Origin: Escherichia coli
Lineage (GTDB): Bacteria > Pseudomonadota > Gammaproteobacteria > Enterobacterales > Enterobacteriaceae
DNA length: 64,000 nucleotides
Reading direction: 5' to 3' (one strand)
Assembly: GCF_045037415.1 (NCBI RefSeq)
Contig: NZ_CP173438.1
Shown: positions 10,554 to 64,000 of the stretch, one piece after another
How the letters are laid out: every line of letters begins with the position of its first letter
How positions within the stretch are numbered: position 1 is the stretch's first letter
Position numbers and translations under genes: made by a program
The notes under the pieces: model-generated
What the model saw: the letters and a program-made list of their open reading frames with translations, nothing else
Told to the model about the DNA's origin: nothing
Databases searched by the model: none

Positions 10554-11554
10554 GTACGCATGAGGCCACCCCGCAACAACCGCTGTTGCAGGCTATCGAC
10601 CTGAAAAAACATTATCCGGTGAAGAAAGGCATGTTCGCGCCGGAACGTCTGGTGAAGGCGCTGGATGGCGTTTCGTTTAACCTTGAACGTGGCAAAACGC
10701 TGGCAGTAGTAGGTGAATCTGGCTGCGGTAAATCGACCCTAGGTCGGTTGCTGACGATGATTGAAACGCCCACCGGCGGCGAACTGTATTACCAGGGGCA
10801 GGATCTGCTCAAGCACGATCCGCAGGCGCAGAAGCTACGTCGGCAGAAAATCCAGATTGTCTTCCAGAACCCTTACGGTTCGCTGAATCCGCGTAAAAAA
10901 GTTGGGCAGATTCTCGAAGAGCCGCTGCTGATCAACACCAGCTTAAGCAAAGAACAGCGTCGGGAAAAAGCCCTGTCGATGATGGCGAAAGTCGGCCTGA
11001 AAACCGAGCATTATGACCGCTATCCGCATATGTTCTCCGGCGGTCAGCGTCAGCGTATCGCCATTGCCCGAGGTCTGATGCTCGACCCGGATGTGGTGAT
11101 TGCCGATGAGCCGGTTTCCGCGCTGGACGTCTCAGTGCGTGCGCAGGTGCTGAATCTGATGATGGATTTGCAGCAGGAACTGGGGCTATCTTATGTCTTT
11201 ATCTCGCACGATCTGTCGGTGGTGGAGCACATTGCTGATGAAGTGATGGTGATGTACCTGGGCCGCTGCGTGGAGAAGGGGACGAAGGACCAAATCTTCA
11301 ATAACCCGCGCCACCCGTACACTCAGGCGCTGCTCTCCGCGACACCACGCCTGAACCCGGACGATCGTCGCGAACGCATCAAACTTACCGGTGAACTGCC
11401 AAGCCCGCTGAATCCACCGCCAGGCTGCGCCTTCAACGCCCGCTGTCGTCGGCGCTTCGGCCCCTGCATCCAGTTGCAGCCGCAGCTAAAAGACTACGGC
11501 GGTCAACTGGTAGCTTGTTTTGCCGTTGATCAGGATGAAAATCCGCAGCGTTAA
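10550..11554 (+). CDS. dppF: Dipeptide ABC transporter ATP-binding protein DppF
   Basis: 334 aa, Walker [13 protein letters not shown] signature FSGGQRQR. Confidence 0.95.
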
Positions 11555-12855: not shown

Positions 12856-13211
12856 AAAGTCCTGTCCAGAAAGAAGTCGGCCTCGCAAAAATGAATAAAC
12901 CCAGTTTCTCTTGCGCAACAGGTGGAGAAGTCGAATACGCAGTATGTAAAAAATGAGGCAACAGATTCACTGGGGAGGTCGCGAGGAGGCGCAATTCTAC
13001 AAAATTGCGCATTTCACTACTAGTCTGGAGTCAGCCCGGATATGAGCTGCAACTATTGCAAATAAAGAAATTAAGCTGGAAGGCATCACGCAATGAGGAA
13101 GATTGCCGGGTGCTGACGGCAAAAAGCAATCGTAAAATCAGCGGCAAGCCGGAAGGGTTCCGGTGAGGCGCAATGTTGCGGGGGCTTTATCCCTGGTGGC
13201 ATTGGTTGCTG

Positions 13212-13278
13212 GAGAGAGAAAACCCCCGCACGTTGCAGGTATGCACCTGACAACATCACGGGGGCCATTCTTGCATCT
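13212..13278 (-). ncRNA. rdlD: Rdl-type antisense RNA (type I antitoxin), copy 1, approximate bounds
   Basis: Minus-strand segment overlapping the ldr leader about 55-120 nt upstream of the ldr ATG, ending in a GC stem plus U-run (plus-strand GAGAGAGAAAACCCCCG); resembles rdlD as I recall it. Ends not determinable from sequence alone. Confidence 0.4.
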
Positions 13279-13330
13279 AGACCATTCAAGAATAGCCGCG
13301 AAACGTTGTCATTACAACACAGGCGGCTAT

Positions 13331-13438
13331 ATGACGCTCGCAGAGCTGGGCATGGCCTTCTGGCATGATTTAGCGGCTCCGGTCATTGCTGGCATTCTTG
13401 CCAGTATGATCGTGAACTGGCTGAACAAGCGGAAGTAA
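13331..13438 (+). CDS. ldrD: Ldr-family type I toxin peptide (35 aa), copy 1
   Basis: MTLAELGMAFWHDLAAPVIAGILASMIVNWLNKRK, the last 35 codons of ORF-track entry 13163..13438; LdrD-like small hydrophobic peptide. Confidence 0.85.
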   Translation: MTLAELGMAFWHDLAAPVIAGILASMIVNWLNKRK

Positions 13439-13488
13439 CGTGTCATGCGGGCGTCAGGCTGCCGTAATGGCAATTTGCGCCCGGACCA

Positions 13489-13522
13489 GGCCGCAGAGGT
13501 GAAACTCTGCGGCCTTTTTCGT
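13489..13522 (+). terminator. Rho-independent terminator after ldr copy 1
   Basis: GGCCGCAGAG-GTGAAA-CTCTGCGGCC hairpin followed by TTTTT. Confidence 0.6.
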
Positions 13523-13694
13523 AAGAAAAATGCAACGGTTGCAAGCGGATAATATTCTGCGGAATGCGCAGCACAGAGTGAAGAAGTGATAGATTCCGGA
13601 ACAGAAAAACAGTCGTAGAATCAGCGTCAAGCCGGAAGGGTTCCGGTGAGGCGCAATGTTGCGGGGGCTTAATCCCTGGTGGCATTGGTTGCTG

Positions 13695-13761
13695 GAGAGA
13701 GAAAACCCCCGCACGTTGCAGGTATGCACCTGACAACATCACGGGGGCTAATCTTGAACCT
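13695..13761 (-). ncRNA. rdlD: Rdl-type antisense RNA, copy 2, approximate bounds
   Basis: Same position within repeat unit 2 (+483 bp from copy 1). Confidence 0.4.
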
Positions 13762-13813
13762 GAACAACTCAAGAATAGCCGCGAAACGTTGTCATTACAA
13801 CACAGGCGGCTAT

Positions 13814-13921
13814 ATGACGCTCGCAGAGCTGGGCATGGCCTTCTGGCATGATTTAGCGGCTCCGGTCATTGCTGGCATTCTTGCCAGTATGATCGTGAGC
13901 TGGCTGAACAAGCGGAAGTAA
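13814..13921 (+). CDS. ldrD: Ldr-family type I toxin peptide (35 aa), copy 2 (N29S variant)
   Basis: MTLAELGMAFWHDLAAPVIAGILASMIVSWLNKRK, the last 35 codons of ORF 13679..13921. Confidence 0.85.
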   Translation: MTLAELGMAFWHDLAAPVIAGILASMIVSWLNKRK

Positions 13922-13971
13922 CGTGTCATGCGGGCGTCAGGCTGCCGTAATGGCAATTTGCGCCCGGACCA

Positions 13972-14005
13972 GGCCGCAGAGGTGAAACTCTGCGGCCTTT
14001 TTCGT
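13972..14005 (+). terminator. Rho-independent terminator after ldr copy 2
   Basis: Same hairpin plus T-run as after copy 1. Confidence 0.6.
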
Positions 14006-14177
14006 AAGAAAAATGCAACGGTTGCAAGCGGATAATATTCTGCGGAATGCGCAGCACAGAGTGAAGAAGTGACGGATTCCGGAGCAGAAAAACAGTCGTA
14101 GAATCAGCGGCAAGCCGGAAAGGTTCCGGTGAGGCGCAATGTTGCGGGGGCTTTATCCCTGGTGGCATTGGTTGCTG

Positions 14178-14244
14178 GAGAGAGAAAACCCCCGTACGTT
14201 GCAGGTATGCACCTGACAACATCACGGGGGCTAATCTTGAACCT
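14178..14244 (-). ncRNA. rdlD: Rdl-type antisense RNA, copy 3, approximate bounds
   Basis: Same position within repeat unit 3; one substitution in the GC stem relative to copies 1 and 2 (CCCCCGTACG versus CCCCCGCACG). Confidence 0.35.
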
Positions 14245-14296
14245 TAACAACTCAAGAATAGCCGCGAAACGTTGTCATTACAACACAGGCGGCTAT

Positions 14297-14404
14297 ATGA
14301 CGCTCGCAGAGCTGGGCATGGCCTTCTGGCATGATTTAGCGGCTCCGGTCATTGCTGGCATTCTTGCCAGTATGATCGTGAACTGGCTGAACAAGCGGAA
14401 GTAA
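14297..14404 (+). CDS. ldrD: Ldr-family type I toxin peptide (35 aa), copy 3
   Basis: MTLAELGMAFWHDLAAPVIAGILASMIVNWLNKRK, the last 35 codons of ORF 14129..14404; identical to copy 1. Confidence 0.85.
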   Translation: MTLAELGMAFWHDLAAPVIAGILASMIVNWLNKRK

Positions 14405-14454
14405 CGTGTCATGCGGGCGTCAGGCTGCCGTAATGGCAATTTGCGCCCGGACCA

Positions 14455-14488
14455 GGCCGCAGGGGGAAACTCTGCGGCCTTTTTCGTT
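14455..14488. terminator. Hairpin between convergent ldr copy 3 and bcsG (candidate bidirectional terminator)
   Basis: GGCCGCAG...CTGCGGCC stem with altered loop, T-run on plus strand, immediately adjacent to the bcsG stop. Confidence 0.45.
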
Positions 14489-17925: not shown

Positions 17926-18197
17926 GTCAACATTTTGTCTGATTATCAGTTTACTAGCGAAAGCTAAGAAATAAACCTACCATTGAAATTAAAACTTATC
18001 AGATTTAGCATGTGAATCAATTTAGCAGGTCACAAGACATGTGATTTTAGTCTTTTCGTTTTTAACTTTTTCTGTTGCATAACGGAAAGTCAAAAAGTGA
18101 GCACATTCCCGTCTCGCCGTAAACAATAAACCGACGAAATGCTCACAGTTAGAATTGTCTCATGAACGGTACGGTTATTTCATAGGGATCAAGAAAA

Positions 18198-49741: not shown

Positions 49742-50470
49742 ATGGCTCATGTCTGCTCGGTGATCCTCGTTCGTCGTTCATTCGATATTCATCATGAACA
49801 GCAAAAAATATCGTTGCATAACGAGAGTATCCTGCTGCTGGATAAAAATTTGGCAGACGATTTTGCGTTTTGTTCACTGGATACGCGACGGCTGGATATC
49901 GAAGAGCTGACAGTTTGCCATTACTTACAAAATATTCGTCAGTTGCCACGCAATTTAGGATTGCATAGCAAAGACCGTTTGTTAATTAACCAGTCACCCC
50001 CCATACAGCTGGTGACGGCGATTTTTGATAGTTTCAATGACCCCCGGGTCAATTCGCCGATACTGAGCAAAATGCTCTATCTTTCCTGTTTATCAATGTT
50101 TTCTCATAAGAAAGAACTGATCCCCTTACTTTTCAATAGTATCAGTACTGTTTCAGGAAAAGTTGAACGCCTTATTAGCTTTGATATCGCTAAACGTTGG
50201 TATCTACGCGATATCGCAGAAAGAATGTACACCAGCGAGAGTCTCATCAAAAAAAAGTTGCAGGATGAAAATACCTGTTTCAGTAAAATATTACTCGCCT
50301 CCAGGATGTCGATGGCCAGACGATTACTCGAGTTACGTCAAATACCTCTGCATACTATTGCGGAAAAATGTGGCTATAGCAGTACGTCATACTTTATAAA
50401 TACATTTAGACAATATTATGGTGTAACGCCACATCAGTTTTCGCAACATTCGCCGGGTACCTTTTCCTGA
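49742..50470 (+). CDS. gadW: AraC-family acid resistance regulator GadW
   Basis: 242 aa (MAHVCSVILVRRSFDIHHEQQKISLHNESILLLDKN...), C-terminal AraC HTH. Confidence 0.95.
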   Translation: MAHVCSVILVRRSFDIHHEQQKISLHNESILLLDKNLADDFAFCSLDTRRLDIEELTVCHYLQNIRQLPRNLGLHSKDRLLINQSPPIQLVTAIFDSFNDPRVNSPILSKMLYLSCLSMFSHKKELIPLLFNSISTVSGKVERLISFDIAKRWYLRDIAERMYTSESLIKKKLQDENTCFSKILLASRMSMARRLLELRQIPLHTIAEKCGYSSTSYFINTFRQYYGVTPHQFSQHSPGTFS

Positions 50471-50832
50471 CATATTTCGCATTTGAATATTGGTCAGGAT
50501 CTCACGTCTGCTTCATGTGAAACTCTTTCCTGATGATTTCTGCCGGGCTACCGGCTAGTTCTCTTTCGCAGTTTGCCAGGCGGTATAGGTATTTTCAGGA
50601 GGAAAAGACTCGGCATGTTTGGGATTATTAAGCTAACAATTCATACGATTACGGGAATGTGGGTCAGTATTGTGCTGTTCAAATTGATGACGAATGGCTG
50701 GAGTGGTTTCTACTTTCAGTGCTGTGTACTAAGCCTGGTATTCCTGACGGTTAGCTGGTTGTTGAGTGGTGAATGGTTAGCAGGAAAGAGTAAGGCTGAA
50801 CCCTCACGTTCAACCTTACTCTCATTTACACG

Positions 50833-53800
50833 TTACGCTTTTTTAAAGCGGGCAAAGAGATGTTCCACTACAACGAAAAAGACCGGAACGAAGTAAATTG
50901 CCAGCACTGTTGCGGCAAACATCCCGCCCATTACGCCGGTACCTACCGCGTTTTGCGCGCCAGAGCCGGCACCATGACTGATAACCAGCGGCAGCACGCC
51001 GAGAATAAAGGCCAGAGAAGTCATCAGGATTGGGCGTAAACGCATACGCGCTGCTTCGATGATTGCCTCTACCGGTGTTTTCCCTTCTTTCTGCATCATC
51101 TCAACGGCAAATTCGACAATCAGGATGGCGTTCTTGGCGGAAAGCCCGATGGTGGTCAGCAAACCAACCTGGAAGTAAACGTCATTACTTAAGCCGCGCA
51201 GATCGGTGGCCAGTAATGCGCCAACGACGCCTAACGGAACAACCAACATCACCGAGAACGGAATTGACCAGCTTTCATAAAGTGCGGCGAGGGCGAGGAA
51301 CACCACGACCAGTGAAATGGCATATAGCGCGGGAGCCTGATTTGAGGATAACGCTTCCTGATACGACAGTCCGGTCCATGAGTAGCCGACGCCTGCCGGA
51401 AGTTTTGCGACCAGGTCTGCCATAAATTTCATGGCGTCACCGGTACTTTTCCCGGCAGCCGCTTCACCTAAAATCTCCATTGACGGGATGCCGTTGTAGC
51501 GTTCCAGTCGCGGTGAACCATAGGTCCATTCGGTAGACGAATAGGCAGAAAGCGGTGCCATCGTGCCAGAGGCGTTGCGTACATACCATTGGTTGATGTT
51601 ATCCGGCAACATACGGAACGGCGTGCCTGCCTGGACATACACTTTTTTCACCCGCCCCTGGTTGAGGAAGTCGTTCACGTAGCTGCTGCCGAAGGCGGTG
51701 GAAATTGTCTGGTTGATATCAGACAGCGCCACACCCATAGCCTCGGCTTTCGCAGCGTTGACGTTCACTTTGAACATCGGCGTATCTTCCAGGCCGTTCG
51801 GGCGTACCCCGATGACCTGATTCGGTGATTGCGCTGCCAGTGATAACAGCTCGTTTCGCGCCTGGGTCAGTTTTTCGTGCCCCAGATTGCCGTTGTCCAG
51901 CAGTTCCATATCAAAACCTGACGCGGTACCCAGTTCAGCCACCGCGGGTAAGTTGAACGGGAAGACGACGGCTTTATTGATACTGCTTAGCGCAATCATT
52001 GCCCGCTGAATAATCGCGGTAACCGAGTTTTCCTCGCCGACACGTTCAGACCACGGCTTGAGGCTGATAAACGCCAGACCGTTGTTTTGCCCCTGACCAC
52101 TGAAGCCAAAGCCACCAACGGTAAACACCGACTGAACATTATTTTTCTCTTTTGTCAGATAATAATCCGTCACCTGTTGTAGCACTTTCGTGGTGTTAAC
52201 CATGGTTGCACCGGAAGGTAACTGCGCGGTGGTCATAAATACCCCCTGATCCTCTTCTGGTAAGAAAGAGGTCGGCGTACGCAGGAACAGCACCGCCATC
52301 CCGGCGCAAATCAGTAGGTAGACCACCATGTAGCGACCGGTACAACGCAACAGCGAGCGGGTGCTGTCGGTATAGTGCTGAGTTGATTTTTCAAACAGCG
52401 TGTTGAAGCGTGCGAACAGGGCGTTAGGTTTGTGACCGCCCTCCGGCGCGGCTTTCAGAATGGTGGCGCACAGGGCAGGGGTCAGGCTCATTGCTACAAA
52501 TACTGAAAGCAGCATGGAGGAGATCAGCGTGATGGAGAACTGGCGGTAGATCTCCCCGGTCGCACCGCTCATAAAGGCCATCGGCATAAACACTGCGGAA
52601 AGAACAACGGCAATCCCGACCAGCGCACGTTGGATCTGCCCCATCGATTTATGCGTCGCTTCCTTCGGCGGTAGCTTATCTTCCGCAATGACACGCTCGA
52701 CGTTCTCCACCACCACGATGGCGTCATCCACCAGTAACCCTATCGCCAGCACCATCCCGAACATAGTTAACGTGTTGATGGTGAAACCAACTGCCGACAA
52801 GATCGCAAACGTCCCGAGAATAACCACCGGTACGGCAATCGTCGGGATGATTGTGGCGCGGAAATTCTGCAAAAACAGATACATGACCAGGAAGACGAGG
52901 ATGATAGCCTCAACCAGCGTTTTGAAAACTTCCTGAATAGAAATTTTGATAAACGGTGTGGTGTCGTAAGGATAAACCGTCTTCAGGCTTGCAGGGAAAT
53001 AAGCCGATAAACGGTTCAGCTCCTCTTTCACCGCTCGCGAGGTATCCAGGGCGTTTGCTCCGGTAGCCAGTTTGATGGCGATCCCGGCGGCAGGTTTGCC
53101 GTTATAGCGCGCCACGGTGGAATAATCTTCCGCCCCAAGTTCGACGCGGGCGACATCACGCAGCAGCACTTGCGAACCATCTTGCTGAACTTTCAACAGG
53201 ATTTTGCCAAATTCTTCCGGCGTTTGCAGACGCGTCTGCACAATGATCGAGGCGTTCAGTTGCTGGTCTGCCGCCTGTGGCATGCCACCCAGTTGACCAC
53301 CAGAAATCTGGTTGTTTTGCACCTTAATCTGGGAAATAACATCGGAAGGTACCAGGTTATATTTATTGAGTTTTTGCGGGTCCAGCCAGATACGCATGGC
53401 GTACTCGGAACCAAAGAGCTGTACGCTACCAACGCCCGCGGTACGGCTTAGCGGGTCTTTGATATTAGACGCTACATAGTCCGCGATATCGTACTGGTTG
53501 AGGCTGCCGTTATCAGAAATAAATGCCGCTACCATCAGGATATTACTGCTCGACTTATCGACGCTAATCCCCTGCTGCTGCACCGCTTCAGGTAATGAAG
53601 GCATAGCGAGTTGCAGTTTATTTTGCACCTGAACCTGTGCGATATCAGGCGATGTCCCCGTCTCGAAGGTCAGAGTGATGGAGGCATTACCTGCCGCATC
53701 GCTGGTTGAAGACATGTACATCAGGCCATCAAGCCCATTCATATTTTGCTCAATCACCTGAGTGACCGAGTCTTCTACCGTTTGCGCATCGGCACCCGGA

Positions 53801-53946
53801 TAGGTTGCGCTGACGGTAATGGTCGGTGGCGCAATCTGCGGATACTGCGCAACCGGTAAGTTCATGATCGCCAGACCGCCTGCAAGCATCATAATAATGG
53901 CAAGTACCCAGGCAAAAACCGGGCGATCAATAAAATAGTTAGCCAT
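50833..53946 (-). CDS. mdtF: RND multidrug efflux pump inner-membrane transporter MdtF
   Basis: 1037 aa AcrB-like RND transporter ([41 protein letters not shown]...). Confidence 0.95.
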
Positions 53947-53970
53947 GAAAGTCCCCTTAAGCCTGCAACG

Positions 53971-55128
53971 TTATTGTTTCGATTCGGTGCTGGCGTTTTC
54001 CTGGCTGGAGGAAATTGCTCGTGCTTTGATACCCGGACGAATGCGTTGCAAGCCGGAAACGATCACCCGATCGCCAGCCTGCAAGCCAGAGGTGACAACC
54101 CACTGGTCGCCGATGGCTTTGCTGGCTTCGATTTCGCGTAGCTGCACGACATCGTCTTTATCCAGAATGAGTGCCGTTGCTTTACCCTGGGCGTTGTGGG
54201 TGACGCCTTCCTGCGGCACCAGTAATACATTCTGGCGGCTACCTTCATCCACTAATGCCGTAACATACATGCCAGGCAGCAAGTCACCATTTGGGTTGGG
54301 GAAAATCGCCCGTAACGTCACGGAGCCCGTGGTTTCATCCACCGTCGGGTCGGAGAATTTCAGCGTGCCGGTCTGGCCGTAACGTTTACCATTTTCCAGA
54401 TTGAGCTGTACTGGCGTACTGCCCTGAACCTGTTTGATTTGCCCACTGGCGACCTCTTCTTTCATGCGCAAGAAATCCTGCACCGACTGCGTGAGATCGA
54501 CATAAATCGGGTCCAGACGTTGTACGGTAACCAGCGAATCTGCCTGATTAGCGGTAACGAGTGCGCCGACGGTCACCGACGATTTCCCGCTGACGCCCGT
54601 AATCGGCGAGGTGACATTCGCGTATTGCAGATTGATCGTCGCCTGTTCAACAGCCGCTTTGGCGACGGTGACATTGGCTTCTGCTTCATTCAACTGGGTG
54701 CGCGCGGTGTCGTAATCCTGACGGCTAACATAGTTGGTCTTCAGCAACGATGCCTGGCGGTTAAAGGTGATGCGGGCATTGCTGGCGGTAGAGAGCGCTT
54801 TCGCCAGCGAGCCTTTGGCGGAGTTCAGCTCTGCCTGTAAAGGCGCAGGATCAATCTGATACAGCGAATCGCCCTGGTTCACTTTATCGCCTTCGATAAA
54901 GTTGCGTTTAATGATAATTCCGCCCACCTGGGGACGTATCTCGGCAACTTCATAAGGAACGGTTCTACCGGGCAATTCGCTCAACACATTGACCGAACCG
55001 GGGGAGAGTGTGACGACACCGACCTCAGGCGTCATGGCGGCGGCGTTTTCCGCCGATTTGTCATCGCAGGCGGTGAGCATCGCGCCGCAGAATAACAACG
55101 GTATTAACAGTTTTCTTCTTCTGTTCAT
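53971..55128 (-). CDS. mdtE: RND efflux membrane fusion protein MdtE
   Basis: 385 aa with lipoprotein signal (MNRRRKLLIPLLFCGAMLTAC), AcrA-like. Confidence 0.95.
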   Translation of the reverse strand: MNRRRKLLIPLLFCGAMLTACDDKSAENAAAMTPEVGVVTLSPGSVNVLSELPGRTVPYEVAEIRPQVGGIIIKRNFIEGDKVNQGDSLYQIDPAPLQAELNSAKGSLAKALSTASNARITFNRQASLLKTNYVSRQDYDTARTQLNEAEANVTVAKAAVEQATINLQYANVTSPITGVSGKSSVTVGALVTANQADSLVTVQRLDPIYVDLTQSVQDFLRMKEEVASGQIKQVQGSTPVQLNLENGKRYGQTGTLKFSDPTVDETTGSVTLRAIFPNPNGDLLPGMYVTALVDEGSRQNVLLVPQEGVTHNAQGKATALILDKDDVVQLREIEASKAIGDQWVVTSGLQAGDRVIVSGLQRIRPGIKARAISSSQENASTESKQ

Positions 55129-55466
55129 TTTAGTCCCTGAAAATTCTTGAGAAATAACGGTTCTTTAAATTGCGCGCGAGGAGAGATATGAGGGATTTAC
55201 AGACCAGCGGCATAGTGGGGTTGTCAGCCAGTAAGATGGGATGCAAGCACAGTGATCGACATGGTGAGGTCAACGACAAAAAAAATGTTGCCGTTCTGCC
55301 AACAGTTTCTGCCAGCATTCGGGCAACGAAGGGTTCTACTGGTGGATACACATACCAGGGGAATAAAGTCGTTTTCGTCTCTCCTTCAATAATCACCGGG
55401 GGTATTGAAATCAGCATCTGCATCCCTCGTCATGCCAGCCATCAATTTCAGTTGCTTATGTCCTTA

Positions 55467-55994
55467 CTAAAAATAAGATGTGATACCCAGGGTGACGATG
55501 TCGCTCATACGTCTTAATTTCAGCTTGTACATAATGTTGAATTTCTGAATCTTTAATGTTTGTTGCGAAATGTTGAGCGTTGACGTGATATTGCTTTCAT
55601 TTTTGTTTTTCAGAATCAGTTGCATAATTTTGAACTGATTATGTGAAAAACATAGTTGTGAATTCTTATGGGGCAAGTGTTTACCATAAGTAATCTCAAG
55701 AAGATTTTTGATACTTTCTTTACGGCTGACAAAATAAATAGGCGCTTTAGCTTTTAGTTTACTGATGTGATAAGGTGCCAAAACAATAATTCTCTCGGCA
55801 TCTAATTTCTCCAGGAATTTAATCGCTTCTTCATCAAGGATATGGTTGTGATAGGTGTCAATGATCACCTTGAAGGGTTTATTGCCTACTTTTTTGATCT
55901 CTGACAGGGAATTGATTTTTATCATTTCGTGATTATCTTTCAACTGCCAAAAGCCCTGTAAAAGAAAAGAATCTTTCGTCATGAGAAAAATCAT
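55467..55994 (-). CDS. gadE: LuxR-family acid resistance master regulator GadE
   Basis: ORF 55467..56072 trimmed to ATG at 55994 (MIFLMTKDSFLLQGFWQLKDNHEMIKINSLSEIKK...), 175 aa. Confidence 0.9.
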   Translation of the reverse strand: MIFLMTKDSFLLQGFWQLKDNHEMIKINSLSEIKKVGNKPFKVIIDTYHNHILDEEAIKFLEKLDAERIIVLAPYHISKLKAKAPIYFVSRKESIKNLLEITYGKHLPHKNSQLCFSHNQFKIMQLILKNKNESNITSTLNISQQTLKIQKFNIMYKLKLRRMSDIVTLGITSYF

Positions 55995-56792
55995 AACTTG
56001 CTCCTTAGCCGTTATCGTTTCGAACATGTCATCCTTTTCATTATTTACATCCTTGTCCGAATCGTTGTTCAATATAGTAAACGCCTATAAGAACTTTGCC
56101 CTTCGTGAACTAATACGTCTATTAACACTAATCAATACTTCAGATTTATCCATCACGCACTCCATATATTGGTCCTAAGTAAGATTCCTGGTTGTTATCA
56201 GTTTGTAACTAGTAAACAAAAGGTTAACTTTTGCGGATTACTGCCCAAGAATAAGTTATCAATAACCAGTTTGTGATCTCTGAAGAATATTACTAAAGTT
56301 AAAATGTAATCCGATTTAAATATCGAGTCTCCTTGTTTCGACTTAGGCTGGCAATTGGATTGCCAGCTTTCTTTTAACGCATTGAAATTACCTGATTAAA
56401 TAACTCATTCATGTCTTCAGGTTTTTATATAGCGTCTGGAGACACGGATATTTATGCAATGTAATCAACGCCAGTTGCAAAAAAATGAACCCGGATTACT
56501 TATTTAACCGCCCATAGCATCAACGCTTACGGAACTCTTTGTTCACTTTCCCACAGCACTTTTAAAACATTAAACCTGACCACGGAAAATATCAGCCATG
56601 ATAATGTTTGAAATGGCTAATTTGCCATGGAACGAAAAAAATCAGATTAAATTCAGTAGGTTGAAATAATCAACAGCAGGCAATTGTTTCAATGATAGTG
56701 CGTAATTGAACTGAAACACTGTATAGCTAAGAGAGTATTAACTGGATCATAGTCACTTAATGTGACTATGATCCAGGTGGAAATAGGGATAA

Positions 56793-57365
56793 TTATTGCT
56801 TTTTAACGAACAAACTGGCGAAGCTGAACAGACTGGCGGCGCTAAATATCAGTTCAATTCCCACCAGTGTGGAAACCAGCGTTACCGACACCATCGGCGT
56901 AGCACCAAGGAATATCCAGGCAATGACGATATCCAGCACACCAATAACGAGCTGTAGCCAACTGCCTTTCATTGAACGCTGACGATACCAACTCATCAGG
57001 CGAATAACCCCTGCCACACAGAACAAACCGGCAATAAATGCCGCAATGGCAAAAATGCCCAGCTCTGGTGCGCGGATGAAGAAATAGCCGATCAATAAAT
57101 AGGCGACTGCGACGAGGAAACCGGATAATACCGGCCAGAAATTATGACTGCGGTTGCTGAATAGCCCGACAATAAGCGCAATGCCCGAGCAGATTAATAA
57201 TGCACCCACTACTGTGCTTAAAATGTCGCCAGAGACGAACGGAAAACTGATACACAGCAACCCGACGATAAACAGCAGCACGGCAATAAACTGGATTGCT
57301 CTGCGATGTTTTTTAAGCATCTCCAGATCAAACTTCAAAATTGTTGCCTTATCTATATATAACAT
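56793..57365 (-). CDS. hdeD: Acid resistance membrane protein HdeD
   Basis: 190 aa multi-TM (MLYIDKATILKFDLEMLKKHRRAIQFIAVLLFIVGL...). Confidence 0.9.
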   Translation of the reverse strand: MLYIDKATILKFDLEMLKKHRRAIQFIAVLLFIVGLLCISFPFVSGDILSTVVGALLICSGIALIVGLFSNRSHNFWPVLSGFLVAVAYLLIGYFFIRAPELGIFAIAAFIAGLFCVAGVIRLMSWYRQRSMKGSWLQLVIGVLDIVIAWIFLGATPMVSVTLVSTLVGIELIFSAASLFSFASLFVKKQ

Positions 57366-57619
57366 AGAACCACCCTATAAAATTAAGAAGAAAATCCCCT
57401 GCTATCAATCTATGCCAAAAACGCGTCTAAGAATGCAGTCGATTTAATAAAAATTTCCTAATTACAGTATCTGATGCATCTGTAACTCATTGTATTGAAA
57501 TAAAAATATCTGATTTTGATATTTTCCATCAACATGACATATACAGAAAACCAGGTTATAACCTCAGTGTCGAAATTGATTCGTGACGGCTCTTTCACTT
57601 TATAGTTGAGGATATTACG

Positions 57620-57952
57620 ATGAAAAAAGTATTAGGCGTTATTCTTGGTGGTCTGCTTCTTCTGCCAGTAGTGAGCAATGCAGCGGATGCACAAAAAGCA
57701 GCTGATAACAAAAAACCGGTCAACTCCTGGACCTGTGAAGATTTCCTGGCTGTGGACGAATCCTTCCAGCCAACTGCAGTTGGTTTTGCTGAAGCACTGA
57801 ACAACAAAGATAAACCAGAAGATGCGGTTTTAGATGTTCAGGGTATTGCAACCGTAACCCCAGCTATCGTTCAGGCTTGTACTCAGGATAAAAAAGCCAG
57901 CTTTAAAGATAAAGTTAAAGGCGAATGGGACAAAATTAAGAAAGATATGTAA
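57620..57952 (+). CDS. hdeA: Periplasmic acid stress chaperone HdeA
   Basis: 110 aa with signal peptide (MKKVLGVILGGLLLLPVVSNAADAQKAADNKKPVNSWTCEDFLAV...). Confidence 0.95.
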   Translation: MKKVLGVILGGLLLLPVVSNAADAQKAADNKKPVNSWTCEDFLAVDESFQPTAVGFAEALNNKDKPEDAVLDVQGIATVTPAIVQACTQDKKASFKDKVKGEWDKIKKDM

Positions 57953-58067
57953 TTCCGGGAATGCGTTACATCGTATTTCCTTGCATATTGAACAGGCCGG
58001 AATATCTTCTTTAAAAGCAGCTATTCCTCCTGTTTGTATATAATCTCTATATTGAATGGGTTACAAA

Positions 58068-58394
58068 ATGAACATTTCATCTCTCCGTAAAGCGTTTATT
58101 TTTATGGGCGCTGTAGCGGCTTTGTCACTGGTGAACGCACAATCTGCGCTGGCAGCCAATGAATCCGCTAAAGATATGACCTGCCAGGAATTTATTGATC
58201 TGAATCCAAAAGCAATGACACCAGTTGCGTGGTGGATGCTGCATGAAGAAACAGTATATAAAGGTGGCGATACCGTTACTTTAAATGAAACCGATCTCAC
58301 TCAAATTCCTAAAGTGATCGAATACTGCAAGAAAAACCCGCAGAAAAATTTGTATACCTTCAAAAATCAAGCATCTAATGACTTGCCGAATTAA
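58068..58394 (+). CDS. hdeB: Periplasmic acid stress chaperone HdeB
   Basis: ORF 58056..58394 trimmed to ATG at 58068 (MNISSLRKAFIFMGAVAALSLVNAQSALA...), 108 aa. Confidence 0.9.
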   Translation: MNISSLRKAFIFMGAVAALSLVNAQSALAANESAKDMTCQEFIDLNPKAMTPVAWWMLHEETVYKGGDTVTLNETDLTQIPKVIEYCKKNPQKNLYTFKNQASNDLPN

Positions 58395-58457
58395 TGAGGT
58401 ACAAGTAAAAAGGAGTAGCAAGTTGAGCCATCTTGCTGCTCCTTTTTGCATTTTTAT

Positions 58458-59105
58458 ATGACAGCAGAATTTATTATACGACTTATACTTGCGGTAATTG
58501 CCTGTGGCGCTATTGGCATGGAAAGACAAATGCGCGGCAAAGGAGCAGGGTTACGCACACATGTATTAATTGGCATGGGAAGCGCCCTGTTTATGATTGT
58601 TTCGAAATATGGTTTTGCTGACGTGCTGTCTTTAGGTCACGTCGGACTAGACCCCAGCCGTATTGCTGCTCAGGTTGTGACGGGCGTCGGGTTTATCGGT
58701 GCAGGTAACATTCTCGTTCGTAACCAAAATATTGTAGGTCTGACGACGGCAGCGGATATCTGGGTGACCGCCGCCATTGGTATGGTTATTGGCAGCGGTA
58801 TGTACGAACTGGGTATTTATGGTTCAGTGATGACCTTGCTGGTGCTGGAAGTCTTCCATCAATTAACCTTCCGCCTGATGAACAAAAATTACCATTTACA
58901 GCTGACATTAGTGAACGGTAATACGGTATCAATGCTCGACTGGTTTAAGCAGCAAAAAATAAAAACGGATTTAGTTTCGTTGCAGGAAAATGAAGATCAT
59001 GAAGTGGTCGCCATTGATATCCAGCTTCATGCCACGACGTCGATAGAAGATCTGTTGCGATTATTAAAAGGTATGGCAGGGGTGAAAGGCGTTTCAATTA
59101 GCTAA
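58458..59105 (+). CDS. yhiD: MgtC-family inner membrane protein YhiD
   Basis: ORF 58446..59105 trimmed to ATG at 58458 (MTAEFIIRLILAVIACGAIGMERQMRGKGAGLRTHVLIG...), 215 aa. Confidence 0.9.
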   Translation: MTAEFIIRLILAVIACGAIGMERQMRGKGAGLRTHVLIGMGSALFMIVSKYGFADVLSLGHVGLDPSRIAAQVVTGVGFIGAGNILVRNQNIVGLTTAADIWVTAAIGMVIGSGMYELGIYGSVMTLLVLEVFHQLTFRLMNKNYHLQLTLVNGNTVSMLDWFKQQKIKTDLVSLQENEDHEVVAIDIQLHATTSIEDLLRLLKGMAGVKGVSIS

Positions 59106-59125
59106 TCTGTATAGTTATTTATTCG

Positions 59126-59150
59126 CAGGAGTACCAGTGCGGTACTCCTG
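59126..59150. terminator. Hairpin between convergent yhiD and chuV (candidate bidirectional terminator)
   Basis: CAGGAGTACC-AGTGC-GGTACTCCTG perfect inverted repeat in the 51-bp gap between the two stop codons. Confidence 0.5.
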
Positions 59151-59156
59151 TTGGTT

Positions 59157-59927
59157 TTAATGATCGAGGACGATCAGTGGTGAATGGTTGGCAGGATCTT
59201 TAAGTACGGTAATATCCGCGCCGTAGAGCATTGTCAGCGCCTGCTGTGTCAATACGTCCTGCGGCTTACCATTTGCGATAACCTTTCCTTTTTGCATTAA
59301 TACAACACGGTCTGCATAACGCGCGGCAAGATTTAGATCGTGCAATACGCAGCAAACATTGAACTGCCGTTCGTGAACTAACTGGCGTAATAAACGAAAC
59401 AAGTGCTGCTGATGGTGAATATCCAGCGCCGAAGTTGGTTCATCAAGAAATAACCATTTCGGTGAGGGAGTAGGTTCCCAGAGTTGCACCAGCAGGCGCG
59501 CTAATTGCACGCGCTGTTGTTCACCACCGGATAATTGCCGATAGTCGCGGTTTGCTAACGCCTGACAGTCACATAACGCCATTATTTGTGCTGTTTCATT
59601 ATCCTGATTACCAGTACGATGCGGATGCCGCCCCATCTGGATAACTTCTTGTACGCTGAATGGAAACGCCATGTGGCTATTTTGACGCATCACGGCCCGG
59701 TGTTTCGCCAGTTCAGTAATCGACCATTCATTTAATGGCTTATTAAACAACCGACATTCGCCGCTATCAGGTTGAAGATAGCCGGTTAGCTGGCGAAGCA
59801 GCGTAGATTTTCCCGCACCATTAGGGCCGAGGATGGCAACAATTTCCCCACCGGGAAAAGTCAGCGAGACATTATCAGTCAGACGCCGCCCCTGAAGGCT
59901 ATAAACCAGATTCTGGGCGCTGATCAT
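59157..59927 (-). CDS. chuV: Hemin ABC transporter ATP-binding protein ChuV/HmuV
   Basis: ORF 59157..60080 trimmed to ATG at 59927 ([42 protein letters not shown]...), 256 aa, Walker A and LSGGEQQR; ATGA overlap with chuU stop. Confidence 0.9.
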
Positions 59928-60916
59928 GTGATCCTCCGGTTGCGCAGAATCAACCACATAAAATAAGGGCCACCAAGCAGGCTGGTTAATAATCCCACGG
60001 GCATTTCTGCTGGCTGTACCAGCGTGCGGGCAAGCGTGTCTGCCATCAGCAATAAACAGGCTCCGGCGAGGGCGGAACAAGGGATTAGCCAGCGGTGATT
60101 TGCCCCGGTAGTCATGCGAATCAGATGCGGGATCACCAGGCCAATAAAGCCGATAATACCGCTTACCGATACGGCAGCACCAACGAGCAGTGAGCTCACT
60201 AACAGTAATTGCTGGCGTTTACGCTTAACGTTCACGCCGAGGTAGTGGGCTTCTTCATCACCGAGCTGCAGTAAATTCAGCGTTCCGGCGAGACAAGTTG
60301 TTGCGATAATGGCCGGTAGGATGAATGAACTGGCAACCAATAACGTCGGCCATTGCGCCTGTCCAAGATTGCCCATCATCCACAATGTGAGTTGTCGTAG
60401 CTGCTGCTCATCGCCGATATAGCTCAGGATGCCGATCGCTGCGCCGCACAGGGCATTGATGGCGATACCGGCGAGTAATAATTGCATCATGCTGCCATCG
60501 CGATGGCGCTGCGTGATGAGAAAAATGATGGTGCAGACCACTAAACTTCCGGCAATGGCAAACACCATTTGCTCATAGAGCACCAGCACCACTGGGAAGG
60601 AGAAGGGCAGCACAATAGCAACGCCAACCATTAATGCAGAACCGCTACTGACGCCAAGTAATCCAGGGTCAGCCATTGGGTTGCGAAAAAGCCCTTGCAT
60701 AATTACCCCTGCGGTTGCCAACGCTGCACCTACCAGCACCGCCAGCAAAACCCGTGGTAGACGAATATTGAGCCAGATATCGCGGTATTCCTCATCAAAA
60801 AGGGCATCAAAACTGATCTTTAACGCTCCCTGACTGGCACCAAACAGCACCAGAGCTAGCAATAATAGTGATAGCCCCATAAAGACCCTGGCGGAAGAGA
60901 GTGAATCCTTGAGCAC
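59924..60916 (-). CDS. chuU: Hemin ABC transporter permease ChuU/HmuU
   Basis: 330 aa multi-TM FecCD-family permease. Confidence 0.9.
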
Positions 60917-60964
60917 GCAAAACTCCGTTACGACATTACGGCGCGGACATGCCGCGCCGGGGGA

Positions 60965-61588
60965 TCACGCCGGTTTCAGGTCCGGTTCAATCAGACTGTA
61001 GACCTGCTGGTTAAGTGCTGGCGCATTTGCCAGTTCATGGATATGTGCGGCGACATCAGCACGGTTAACAAAACCATGACACTCCTGATTTTGTATCCGT
61101 TGTGCTTTGCCCGTTGCCGCACCATCAAGCAGACCGCCAGGGCGGAGAATGGCATAATCAAGCTGGCTGGTTTGCAACCAGCTTTCCGCCAGCGTTTTTT
61201 CCCGTACCGCCTGACCAAACGCAGCCTTTGCCCGCTCTGATAAAAACGGCCAGCTATCGCCGCATCCCAAAGAGGTCACCAGAATCATGCGACTGATGCC
61301 AGCCTTCTCGGCCTCATCAATCACTGTTCTGTGCGCCAGATAATCCTGAGCTCCGCCCATTGTTGAGATGATAAGCGCATCCGGGCCAGCTGCGCGGCAA
61401 GCAGCCGCGACTACGCTGGCATCACAGGCGTCGCCTGTAAAAACCTGTACGCCTTGTTGCGCCAGTTTCGTGGCGGCATCGGCATGACGAATGACAGCAA
61501 CGACCGGACGTTGTTCCGCCAGCGCCAGTTCAAGCGTTCTGGCACCCACACCTTTTCCGCCCGCACCAAAGAGTAGCCACGGTGTCAT
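60965..61588 (-). CDS. chuY: NAD(P)H-dependent reductase ChuY (anaerobilin reductase)
   Basis: 207 aa with Rossmann-type N-terminus (MTPWLLFGAGGKGVGARTLELA...); position in chu operon. Confidence 0.8.
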   Translation of the reverse strand: MTPWLLFGAGGKGVGARTLELALAEQRPVVAVIRHADAATKLAQQGVQVFTGDACDASVVAAACRAAGPDALIISTMGGAQDYLAHRTVIDEAEKAGISRMILVTSLGCGDSWPFLSERAKAAFGQAVREKTLAESWLQTSQLDYAILRPGGLLDGAATGKAQRIQNQECHGFVNRADVAAHIHELANAPALNQQVYSLIEPDLKPA

Positions 61589-62082
61589 CAGGCGTGTTCC
61601 TTTAACGATGCTGCCAGAGCATGGAAGGCGCTGACTTGTTCGCTCAGGAGCTGACGATGATCATCCCTACCGAGGAAGATTTTCAGCATTGCGCTGCCTT
61701 CCTTATTGAAAAAGAGAATAGAGGCGGTGTCCATGCCCATAAATTTACGTTCGATCAAGGCAATATGCGTGCAGTTTTCTGCTTTGATATGCCCGGACAT
61801 GCCGTGCTTTCCGCGTAGGTTGAAATAGCCGTGGCGATGGAAACCCGAAGGCAGTTCGCCGCTAAATTCGAGTATTACATCGGTAGTATGTACTAACGTG
61901 GTGACGTTGCCCCATTCGCAGACGGTATCCCAGACAGTATCGAATTTATCACCTGACACAACAGTCGGAGAGGGCAGATTTTTCACTACCTCCAGCAGCG
62001 TGGTGTTGTATTGTTCGGCGATCGCCTCCAGCGTACCGTCTGGCTCCGTTTTCAAAAATTCCTGTAACGAGACATGGCTCAT
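61588..62082 (-). CDS. chuX: Heme utilisation carrier protein ChuX (HutX family)
   Basis: 164 aa (MSHVSLQEFLKTEPDGTLEAIAEQYNTTLLEVVKNLP...); position between chuW and chuY. Confidence 0.8.
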   Translation of the reverse strand: MSHVSLQEFLKTEPDGTLEAIAEQYNTTLLEVVKNLPSPTVVSGDKFDTVWDTVCEWGNVTTLVHTTDVILEFSGELPSGFHRHGYFNLRGKHGMSGHIKAENCTHIALIERKFMGMDTASILFFNKEGSAMLKIFLGRDDHRQLLSEQVSAFHALAASLKEHA

Positions 62083-62094
62083 AAATCACTCCTG

Positions 62095-63432
62095 TTATGG
62101 TTTTTCAAGCGCAATTGCTGGCGCATTAAGTACCTGAATCAGTTCATTAAGAGACTGCAAAATGTTGCTTGCCCAGAAACGACCTTCATTGGTCAACCGC
62201 AGACACGTTGACGCATCGCGGCTTAAGCCTTTTTGGTGCCACTGGGCCAGTAACGGCGCGAGTTTTTCGGCATGTGGCGTAAGTTCGTCCAGCGGTACAC
62301 GCGCCGTTTCAATGCCCGACTGCAAGGTATGACGCCACTGCGCGTTACGTTCGGCGTTACGCATGATCATCATCAGCGGTTTTTTGCCTGCTGCGACGGA
62401 TTCATGCCAGGTCTGAAGATTGCGTTCGTTCATCCAGGAGTAACCATTAATCGAACCGCCGGCTCCGGAACCAAAGGCCAGACAATCGGCACCTTGTTTA
62501 ATCAGCAGGTTATAGAGATTGCGTTCGCGTGTGGTACGGCCCCAGTGGCTGTTACTGATGCAGCGCCAACCGGCATCGTCCATAAAATCACACCCTTGCA
62601 GGTAAAGATCGCGACGTTCTGCCGGAGAGGGCACGGTAGTACGCCCATTTTCCACGGCTTTGCCCAGCGGTGTATTGGGCAGGACATTGAGCGCATAGAG
62701 ATCGACGCCGTCGAGACCGATATCGCGGGCAATAGCCAGATCTTCTCCCCAGGTTTGCGCATCCTGACCCGGCAGACCAAACAGCAGGTCACAGACCACC
62801 GCGGCACGGTCGCGTTTGACCAGGCTTTCCATAAACGCAATAGCGGTTGGGCCATCCGAGGTGCGGGCCATTTTCTTGCGGATTTTGCTGTTAAACGACT
62901 GAATACCAATTGAGAAGCGGTTTGCTCCAGCATCAAGGCAAGCATCGATTCGCTCAGCGTCAAAATTCAGTACCCGGCCTTCGATAGTGATTTCACAATC
63001 AGGGGCCAGTGGCAACTTTTCTCGTAATGTGGTGATGATTCTGGCCAAATCGTGTGCTGAAAGCGCGGAAGGCGTACCGCCACCGAAATAGACCGCGTGG
63101 ATGGGGCCCGACTGATGCAATACGCTGTCTGCTTCCAGTTCTATTTCACGAATCAGGGCGTCGGTATAATGAGCACACACATCTTCATTAAAACGGTTCT
63201 GATAAAAACCACAAAATGTGCAGTGTGTCGCACAAAAAGGAATGTGTAGGTAAACCAGTCGCTTACGTGGTGATACCGTTTGATTGATCATCTCTTGCCA
63301 GGTCTGTACCAGTTGCTCTTTGGCAACCGGAATGGCCCCACGAAACGGCATCATGGCGCGCCTGTCTTTAAAGGGCTGATCACCGTCTAAAGCAAAATGT
63401 GGCGTGAGATCCAGGGTGTTATTTGTGTTCAT
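62095..63432 (-). CDS. chuW: Radical SAM heme-degrading methyltransferase ChuW (HemN-like)
   Basis: 445 aa with radical SAM cysteine motif CATHCTFC (CxxxCxxC). Confidence 0.85.
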   Translation of the reverse strand: MNTNNTLDLTPHFALDGDQPFKDRRAMMPFRGAIPVAKEQLVQTWQEMINQTVSPRKRLVYLHIPFCATHCTFCGFYQNRFNEDVCAHYTDALIREIELEADSVLHQSGPIHAVYFGGGTPSALSAHDLARIITTLREKLPLAPDCEITIEGRVLNFDAERIDACLDAGANRFSIGIQSFNSKIRKKMARTSDGPTAIAFMESLVKRDRAAVVCDLLFGLPGQDAQTWGEDLAIARDIGLDGVDLYALNVLPNTPLGKAVENGRTTVPSPAERRDLYLQGCDFMDDAGWRCISNSHWGRTTRERNLYNLLIKQGADCLAFGSGAGGSINGYSWMNERNLQTWHESVAAGKKPLMMIMRNAERNAQWRHTLQSGIETARVPLDELTPHAEKLAPLLAQWHQKGLSRDASTCLRLTNEGRFWASNILQSLNELIQVLNAPAIALEKP

Positions 63433-63451
63433 TCGTCTGATTTAAATCCAT

Positions 63452-64000
63452 TTATTGCGGCCAAAGCTGCTGGTGTAAAGACTCAACGACATCAGCAATA
63501 CGCGGACCCATTCCCAGAATCAGGTTTTGATCAACGGTGATAATGCGCTGGTTTTTCCATGCGGCAGTGTGGGTAATTCCGGCAATAGAACGTAGCCGAT
63601 TAATATCGCCATCGACCATTTGTGAGGTGACGACAATCACTTCAGGGTTAGCCGCAATCAGCGATTCCGCGCTGTAGCTTTTGTACTGCTGGTGGGTAGC
63701 GACGTTTTCTGCTCCGGCAAGCGAAAGAATGGCGTCCGCGACGCTGCCTTTACCGGCAACCTGTGGCGCACTTCCGCCTGCGGAGAGAATAAACATGGCT
63801 TTAACCGGGGCTTTTTTGGCCGCCACGTTTTGCTGTACTCGCTCCAGGCGTTGGTTGATCTGTGTCACCAGCGCCTCGCCTTGTTCAGGAACCTGTAACG
63901 TTTTTGCCAGTTGGCGAATGTTGGCGTACATCTGCTCAAGGGTGGCTGGTACACGCGGCAGAGTGACGACGTTGACTTTTTGCGCCCGCAGTTGGTCGAG
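63452..64000 (-). CDS. chuT: Periplasmic hemin-binding protein ChuT (partial; 5' end beyond window)
   Basis: The minus-strand frame is open from the stop at 63452 to the window end; C-terminal region ...VTSQMVDGDINRLRSIAGITHTAAWKNQRIITVDQNLILGMGPRIADVVESLHQQLWPQ. The track's start at 63931 is an internal Met. Confidence 0.8.
   Translation of the reverse strand, partial: LDQLRAQKVNVVTLPRVPATLEQMYANIRQLAKTLQVPEQGEALVTQINQRLERVQQNVAAKKAPVKAMFILSAGGSAPQVAGKGSVADAILSLAGAENVATHQQYKSYSAESLIAANPEVIVVTSQMVDGDINRLRSIAGITHTAAWKNQRIITVDQNLILGMGPRIADVVESLHQQLWPQ

Follow-up and report, generated by a model that had tools for sequence, protein, structure and literature searches.

The chu heme-utilization locus at the yhiD-dctR site of an ST131-like Escherichia coli genome: a lineage marker with two possibly ancient alleles

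The heme-utilization locus of Escherichia coli, named chu and equivalent to shu of Shigella, contributes in chuA a phylogroup marker of the Clermont PCR scheme. The shu locus of S. dysenteriae is described as spanning 9.1 kb and comprising eight genes, shuA, shuS, shuTWXY plus shuUV (Wyckoff et al. 1998, as summarized in PMC5458455), and separate shuTWXY and shuUV transcripts have been predicted (PMC5458455). In O157:H7 Sakai, the locus constitutes a 9-kb insertion between yhiF (dctR) and yhiD (PMC2241611), and the acid fitness island measures ~22 kb with chu and ~13 kb without it (PMC9144400). chu is found in phylogroups B2, D, E, F and G and is absent in A, B1 and C (PMC8281228). Its site, biochemistry and value as a phylogroup marker are, like the locus itself, already known and of textbook status.

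The window analysed here, a stretch of 64,000 nucleotides, ends within such a locus. Positions 59111-64000 almost certainly make up the leftmost 4.9 kb of a chu (shu) locus of 9,054 bp at its canonical yhiD-dctR (yhiF) site, within the acid fitness island of an ST131-like phylogroup B2 genome; no observation contradicts this identification. Over the compared stretches (~63.9 of 64 kb), E. coli ST131 strain JJ1887 differs from the window by one mismatch and one extra base, with no mismatch over positions 50106-64000 and a single one over 1-49999. This near-identity points to ST131 and phylogroup B2. Positions 59106-64000 are 100% identical to many complete genomes, O25b:H4 and JJ1887 among them. 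The gadW gene is annotated with a frameshift in JJ1887; the window open reading frame is intact, ruling out the assumption that the frameshift applies to the window as well.

Past the window end, the RefSeq annotation of JJ1887 lists chuT, chuA and chuS, then dctR and slp. chuA and chuS, which the initial annotation had expected there, are the next genes in this near-identical genome, and 2,235 of 5,426 complete E. coli genomes carry what remains of the locus. Both genes and the right junction, all outside the window, are presumed from one near-identical genome and the genome survey.

Open reading frames and RefSeq reproduce the layout given in the initial annotation, in which yhiD is followed by a spacer of exactly 51 bp (59106-59156) with a perfect hairpin and then by minus-strand chu genes. 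The yhiD gene (58458-59105, plus strand) encodes a protein of the MgtC/SapB family (NCBIfam NF007431, 398 bits against a cutoff of 214) and has its RefSeq start, the sequence being identical in JJ1887. It closes the hdeAB-yhiD unit within the acid fitness island and forms the conserved flank to the left of chu. In K-12 MG1655, dctR follows 41 bp after yhiD, in agreement with what had been claimed for the corresponding K-12 position, and the 9,054-bp locus stands in place of 35 bp of the K-12 yhiD-dctR spacer. Comparison of the junctions of K-12, the window, JJ1887 and three additional species-level lineages of Escherichia (L003, L004 and L006) revealed TCTGT (59106-59110) as the last 5 bp in common with the empty K-12 allele, which places the left edge of chu at 59110|59111. 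The left junction of the chromosomal site between yhiD and dctR thus lies inside the window, and JJ1887, O157:H7, L003, L004 and L006 show the right one. Insertion between yhiD and yhiF, as stated in the initial annotation, is also the published arrangement in O157:H7 Sakai (PMC2241611).

Every protein called as ChuT, ChuU, ChuV, ChuW, ChuX or ChuY matches its Chu/Shu/Hmu family or a solved structure, so these earlier gene calls stand. The first minus-strand gene beyond the spacer, chuV (hmuV; 59157-59927), encodes a 256-aa heme ABC transporter ATPase (NCBIfam NF010068 equivalog, 395 bits against a cutoff of 261; HmuV 4G1U_C at 3e-95), whose translation contains a ten-residue Walker motif, the signature LSGGEQQR and the Walker B sequence LFLDEP. 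Its start is overlapped by 4 bp by the stop of chuU (59924-60916, minus strand), a 330-aa heme ABC transporter permease with a GTG start, which matches HmuU 4G1U_A at 1e-128 and is named ShuU/ChuU in RefSeq. The chuY gene (60965-61588, minus strand) encodes a 207-aa NmrA/SDR-like anaerobilin reductase by its RefSeq name and its match to PDB 5GUY/5FFQ at 1e-134. Among NCBIfam families, ChuU has only BtuC-type matches, all below cutoff and none ChuU-specific, and ChuY has no match at 1e-5; the identities of these two proteins are therefore settled by solved structures. The 164-aa cytosolic heme carrier ChuX of the HutX family (61588-62082, minus strand) reaches 210 bits with equivalog TIGR04108 (cutoff 110) and matches PDB 2OVI at 9e-106. 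ChuW (62095-63432, minus strand), a 445-aa radical-SAM methyltransferase for anaerobic heme opening, scores 570 bits with the ChuW/HutW equivalog TIGR04107 (cutoff 400) and bears a CxxxCxxC motif within FCATHCTFCGF; its closest solved structure, HemN 1OLT, is only distant. A chuW-chuX-chuY block is thereby present in full. The C-terminal 182 of the 304 codons of chuT, which encodes the periplasmic heme-binding protein, occupy 63452-64000 on the minus strand (ShuT 2R7A at 2e-112). A truncation of chuT had been suspected from a 159-aa open reading frame at 63452-63931, but translation shows the frame open to the window edge, and the gene is merely cut by the window; in the numbering of the JJ1887 locus (L001), full chuT lies at 13347-14261. 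ChuT, partly in the window, ChuU and ChuV together supply a periplasmic binding protein and a type II ABC importer.

Established knowledge of these families suggests how the products would cooperate. ChuA, encoded just past the window, would pass heme across the outer membrane in a TonB-driven manner, ChuT would bind it in the periplasm, and ChuU2V2 would pump it into the cytoplasm, where ChuX would hold it. Degradation would proceed aerobically through ChuS, or anaerobically through ring opening by the radical-SAM methyltransferase ChuW, yielding iron and anaerobilin, the latter then reduced by ChuY. Fur is predicted to repress chu via boxes located between chuT and chuA, and an RNA thermometer in the chuA 5′-UTR probably gates translation of that gene.

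These regulatory elements lie 0.3-0.9 kb past the window end. In JJ1887, Fur boxes occur at L001 14285 and 14636, with 16/19 and 17/19 consensus matches, and the Rfam shuA/chuA thermoregulator is found at L001 14916-14947 (60.1 bits, gathering score 58). The Fur scan used a cut-off of 13/19, at which shuffled sequences average 1.9 sites each; no box for chuUV exceeds 13/19 in the window, and the 13/19 matches are all intragenic. The promoter scan of the window minus strand likewise returned no sigma-70 consensus promoter. A hairpin and a ribosome-binding site occupy the 48-bp gap between chuY and chuU and leave no space for a promoter. This G+C-rich hairpin, GGCGCGG-catgt-CCGCGCC (60940-60958, minus strand), precedes the chuU GTG by 23 nt; its stems are unchanged across O157, L003 and L004, while the loop is altered in L003. 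It could serve as an RNA stabilizer or attenuator. The genes, called an operon in the initial annotation, may be transcribed as one unit or as chuTWXY plus chuUV, the literature prediction being separate transcripts. L006 carries a partial locus, and an ERIC element was sought as its explanation; ERIC-like matches occur only in L006, and there is none in the chuT-chuA spacer of JJ1887.

The history of the site was approached through the divergence of its two alleles. L003, L004 and L006 all carry chu at the same site with the left junction TCTGT|AT. Identity to the window is 97.9% for the flanks and 97.1% for chu in O157:H7, 96.0 and 95.1% in L006, 93.2 and 91.5% in L004, and 89.4 and 92.3% in L003. 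The divergence of chu keeps pace with that of its flanks, even across the three sister Escherichia lineages, so chu is old at this site. Alignment pairs the empty K-12 spacer with its empty counterparts in E. whittamii and Escherichia sp. E1V33, and in Citrobacter a dctR-like gene directly follows yhiD. These two observations indicate that the empty allele is itself ancestral sequence. No entry named E. albertii, E. fergusonii or E. marmotae appeared when species representatives were scanned with YhiD.

Taken together, the shared sister-lineage junction, the co-divergence and the homology of the K-12 35-bp spacer to those of E. whittamii and E1V33 lead us to propose, tentatively, that the occupied and empty yhiD-dctR alleles both predate E. 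coli diversification. The presence or absence of chu would then be a long-lived trans-lineage polymorphism, spread via homologous recombination in the flanks, rather than a gain specific to pathogens or a simple loss; the acid-resistance operon and its convergent neighbour would be separated by no strong terminator other than the one in the chu segment. The chu segment itself probably replaced 35 bp of the ancestral spacer long ago; it has since diverged jointly with its flanks, and its presence or absence sorts with E. coli lineages. The five sister-lineage loci are compatible with a single old gain followed by replacement of the allele as well as with recurrent transfer through homologous recombination.

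Alternatively, chu could be ancestral to E. coli and deleted in K-12 (phylogroups A, B1 and C), the "insertion" being a K-12-centred illusion. The identical site and left junction in L003, L004 and L006, the co-divergence with the flanks and the presence of chu in phylogroups B2, D, E, F and G all agree with such a history, yet it is rather unlikely: the 35 bp of K-12 are no deletion scar, having aligned counterparts in the unoccupied spacers of E. whittamii and E1V33, and the dctR-like gene of Citrobacter sits directly after yhiD. With an ancestral empty allele, loss would require allele replacement by recombination and not plain deletion.

The putative terminator invoked in the two-allele proposal is a hairpin inside the chu segment, at 59125-59151 in the spacer between yhiD and chuV. 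It consists of CAGGAGTACC-agtgc-GGTACTCCTG, a perfect 10-bp inverted repeat that gives 11 pairs with a closing G-U and a 5-nt loop. Folding yields -21.5 kcal/mol (z = -3.8) on the plus strand and -17.9 kcal/mol (z = -4.4) on the minus strand, neither value was equalled in 200 shuffles, and the hairpin is the top terminator-like site in the scan. TGGTTTT follows the stem on the plus strand only, so that a G+C-rich stem-loop with a U-run, as in Rho-independent termination, is found there. Because the T-run is on the yhiD strand, the hairpin is most likely a terminator for hdeAB-yhiD transcription, a role read from sequence features, and would end it before it runs antisense into chuV. That it is instead a chuV terminator or a chance palindrome is unlikely. 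It does lie 5 nt past the chuV stop on the minus strand, where it also folds well, but the stem is followed there by GCGAAUAAAUAAC, which lacks a U-run, against UUGGUUUU after the stem on the plus strand. Furthermore, the arms show no change in L003 and L004, whose loops both differ, and such conservation in lineages at ~90% identity makes a chance palindrome improbable. The hairpin may nevertheless act on both strands.

The initial annotation also called the locus an island marking a pathogen-type backbone. The first term holds in the sense of presence and absence among strains: the full locus occurs in 2,235 of the 5,426 complete E. coli genomes and its window part in 2,238 (~41%), with an empty site in 3,179. 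The usual marks of a mobile island are absent. Annotation of the locus and its flanks places no integrase, transposase, tRNA or IS at either end and only chu genes in the yhiD-dctR interval; terminal or direct repeats were not found either, the longest sequence shared by the two locus ends being 8 bp, a chance level. A composition unlike the host, for which a G+C comparison had been suggested, was not borne out. The whole locus has a G+C of 0.502 and the part inside the window 0.522, compared with 0.509 for the window, the flanking acid-fitness genes being the atypical ones (0.34-0.46), and GC3 deviates only mildly (0.53 in chu genes vs 0.61 in core genes of the window). As to the second term, the window does come from an ST131-like ExPEC lineage, but chu follows phylogroup and its carriers include isolates from river water, night heron, dogs and yak. 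chu is an ordinary lineage marker, not a pathogenicity marker. That chu is a pathogenicity island acquired recently by horizontal transfer and diagnostic of a pathogen genome is very improbable, for although it varies among strains, has a lowered GC3 and is tied by the literature to ExPEC, EHEC and S. dysenteriae with horizontal transfer suggested (PMC3852070), it lacks mobility features and end repeats above 8 bp, matches the window in G+C, is always single-copy at a single site with none of 2,238 copies on a plasmid, tracks flank divergence down to ~90% identity, with figures that already point toward chu trees congruent with the core-genome tree, and is distributed by phylogroup rather than pathotype, environmental and animal isolates included.

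For annotation, chu places the window sequence in a chuA-positive lineage. The added value is modest and consists of a base-exact boundary, the finding of no mobile-island feature, and evidence for the age of both alleles, which cautions against taking chu as a sign of pathogenicity.

Compared with described systems, the locus is closest to those of O157:H7 (the Sakai 9-kb insertion) and uropathogenic strains, which share its eight genes, their order and orientation, and the insertion site. The chu genes of O157:H7 Z887 are 97.1% identical to the window at the nucleotide level; an in-frame 183-bp deletion affects its chuU, which is intact in the window, and the remaining differences are allelic only. 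The S. dysenteriae shu locus, as characterized in PMC5458455, is a 9.1-kb, eight-gene locus like chu, and its ShuT (2R7A) matches the ChuT fragment at 2e-112. The Fur site in the shuT 5′-UTR, three nucleotides off consensus (PMC5458455), matches the 16/19 box of the JJ1887 locus. Beyond this group, hmu of Yersinia pestis (HmuTUV, 4G1U), which differs in genus, encodes a homologous type II ABC importer, matched by ChuU at 1e-128 and by ChuV at 3e-95. ChuW and ChuX reach the HutW and HutX equivalog cutoffs, linking them to the hutWXZ/hmuW genes for anaerobic heme degradation in Vibrio and Fusobacterium, with a common chemistry of radical-SAM ring opening to anaerobilin (PMC10404700). The third gene sets these systems apart: chu has the NmrA/SDR-like reductase ChuY, while Vibrio has HutZ and Fusobacterium a flavodoxin-type protein.

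The frames that follow yhiD (58458-59105, plus strand; start from RefSeq) belong to the chu (shu) heme utilisation locus and all lie on the minus strand. Beyond a non-coding spacer of 51 bp (59106-59156), they comprise chuV (59157-59927, 256 aa), chuU (59924-60916, 330 aa), chuY (60965-61588, 207 aa), chuX (61588-62082, 164 aa), chuW (62095-63432, 445 aa) and chuT (63452-64000), of which 182 codons are present in a frame open to the window edge. This layout, including the perfect hairpin within the spacer, matches to the base that of an initial annotation made from sequence alone, and its assignment to the Chu/Shu/Hmu families holds, as every protein aligns to a family or solved structure. ChuV scores 395 bits against a cutoff of 261 for the NCBIfam equivalog of heme ABC ATPases and matches Yersinia HmuV (4G1U, 3e-95); ChuU matches HmuU (4G1U, 1e-128). 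Over its full length, ChuY aligns with the solved ChuY/ShuY-like structures 5GUY and 5FFQ (1e-134), and ChuX exceeds the HutX equivalog cutoff and also matches 2OVI. ChuW, which bears the CxxxCxxC motif, scores 570 bits against a cutoff of 400 for the ChuW/HutW radical-SAM equivalog, and the partial ChuT aligns with S. dysenteriae ShuT (2R7A, 2e-112). A 213-aa ORF antisense within chuW (62272-62913, plus strand) is unannotated in the identical sequence of the ST131 genome JJ1887 and thus most likely arises by chance opposite coding sequence. In O157:H7 Z887, an in-frame loss of 183 bp (61 codons), bounded by two ATTACT repeats, affects chuU (12964-13773 of locus L084), which RefSeq names a generic FecCD permease; the window copy is intact.

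Many complete E. coli genomes, including O25b:H4 and JJ1887, share 59106-64000 at 100% identity. Compared with JJ1887, 50106-64000 contains no mismatch and 1-49999 contains one, and the window has one additional base between 49999 and 50106. Here gadW (49742-50470) is an intact ORF of 242 aa, annotated as frameshifted (728 bp) in the JJ1887 record. Elsewhere, between bcsG and yhjV (13122-14487), a 483-bp unit is repeated in tandem 2.8 times (97% matches), with a type I toxin gene of the Ldr family in each copy. Past the window end, JJ1887 continues with the rest of chuT, a 683-bp spacer, chuA, chuS, dctR (yhiF) and slp. Because chuA and chuS follow the matching end in JJ1887, both are expected just beyond the window, as the first reading had predicted.

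In K-12 MG1655, dctR lies 41 bp past yhiD, the position that the initial annotation had given it. Past the yhiD stop, K-12 and the window share the first 5 bp, TCTGT, and agreement between K-12 and JJ1887 resumes 1 bp beyond the dctR stop; the intervening sequence measures 35 bp in K-12 versus 9,054 bp in JJ1887. The left edge of the chu segment is therefore 59110|59111, which places the spacer hairpin (59125-59151) within the segment. Repeats shared by the two locus ends do not exceed 8 bp, and neither border has an annotated mobility gene, tRNA or IS. The term "island" stands in the sense of presence and absence only.

A strong hairpin occurs at each end of the segment. The left one is a perfect 10-bp inverted repeat (11 pairs including a closing G-U) with a 5-nt loop (-21.5 kcal/mol, z = -3.8), a fold equalled by none of 200 shuffles. 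A scan of 57400-64000 ranks it first among terminator-like sites, and its T-run is on the yhiD strand only. The right one, after chuS and outside the window (18017-18044 of the JJ1887 locus), has a stem of 12 pairs and then UUUAUAUU (-20.4 kcal/mol, z = -3.1). In K-12, the 41-bp spacer (4215-4255 of the K-12 locus) does not fold significantly (z = 0.06). The chu segment would bring its own predicted terminators, and the left one would keep hdeAB-yhiD transcripts from extending antisense into chuV. Neither a convincing Fur box nor a convincing minus-strand promoter occurs inside the window. The chuT-chuA spacer contains two strong predicted Fur boxes (16/19 and 17/19 matches to consensus) and a match to the Rfam shuA/chuA thermoregulator, at extrapolated window coordinates of ~64390, ~64741 and ~65021, all beyond the window. 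The 48-bp chuY-chuU gap contains a G+C-rich hairpin, GGCGCGG-catgt-CCGCGCC (60940-60958, minus strand), 23 nt ahead of the GTG that starts chuU, leaving no room for a chuUV promoter there. Its stems are invariant in O157:H7 and in two sister Escherichia lineages (L003 and L004), and its loop differs in L003. Of the proposed minus-strand operon, the shared strand stands, and a single operon is one candidate arrangement.

Base composition, a check suggested by the initial annotation, yields no more than a slight indication that chu is foreign. G+C is 0.502 for the whole locus and 0.522 for its window part, near the 0.509 of the whole window. The compositionally atypical genes are the acid-fitness flanks (gadE 0.34, hdeA 0.42, hdeB 0.41, yhiD 0.45), not chu. 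GC3 is 0.53 in the chu genes, intermediate between 0.61 in the window core genes and 0.43 in the acid-fitness genes, and in codon usage the chu genes are closer to the core (distance 0.37) than the acid-fitness genes are (0.57). Between mdtE and the gadE 3′ end, an Rfam ES205 sRNA match (55278-55349, minus strand; 106.5 bits, gathering score 86) overlaps an opposite-strand "hypothetical protein" annotated in JJ1887.

Among 5,426 complete E. coli genomes, the window part of chu is present in 2,238, always as one chromosomal copy and never on a plasmid; 2,235 have the remainder, from the chuT 5′ end to chuS, at 80% coverage or more, and 3,179 have a contiguous empty yhiD-dctR site. A YhiD scan of one genome per GTDB species returned five Escherichia loci. 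The full chu locus occurs at the same junction in L003 and L004, and the empty site occurs in E. whittamii and Escherichia sp. E1V33. Of the chu genes, Escherichia sp. MOD1-EC7003 (L006) has only chuA-chuS. This third state of the site retains the left junction TCTGT|AT, with ~650 bp bearing ERIC-like repeat matches (5880-6530) in place of chuTWXYUV. An 8,635-bp contig labelled Flavobacterium paronense CECT 8460 carries mdtE-gadE-hdeD-hdeAB-yhiD-chuV-chuU at E. coli-level identity with several frameshifts; contaminating E. coli DNA in a long-read assembly is the almost certain source.

Identity to the window falls together for seven flanking genes and the chu genes: 97.9% and 97.1% in O157:H7 Z887, 96.0% and 95.1% in L006 (chuA and chuS only), 93.2% and 91.5% in L004, and 89.4% and 92.3% in L003. 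The divergence of chu has thus kept pace with that of its neighbours to species-level distances, and its presence at this site is old. Alignment of the 35 bp found in K-12 with the empty spacers of E. whittamii and E1V33 shows the empty allele to be ancestral sequence rather than a deletion scar. Both alleles are therefore old. A dctR-like gene directly follows yhiD in two Citrobacter species, so the adjacency appears older than the genus Escherichia. At 10001-11380 of the Citrobacter sp. On2M and C. werkmanii loci, yhiD has a homologue of 55-56% identity, and the dctR-like gene next to it is convergent and of the LuxR family (41-42% identity).

Published work places chu in phylogroups B2, D, E, F and G and reports its absence from A, B1 and C (PMC8281228). 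The latter may never have had chu, or may have regained the empty allele by recombination. Whichever history holds, chu is a marker of lineage and not of pathogenicity, and the earlier reading of a "pathogen-type" backbone goes too far. The chu locus at yhiD-dctR is a known system at a known site. Its placement between yhiD and yhiF, as initially annotated, agrees with the 9-kb insertion described in O157:H7 Sakai (PMC2241611). The shu locus has been defined as a 9.1-kb unit of eight genes (PMC5458455), and acid fitness islands measure ~22 kb with chu versus ~13 kb without it (PMC9144400). The finding is thus not new, having been published in different terms.
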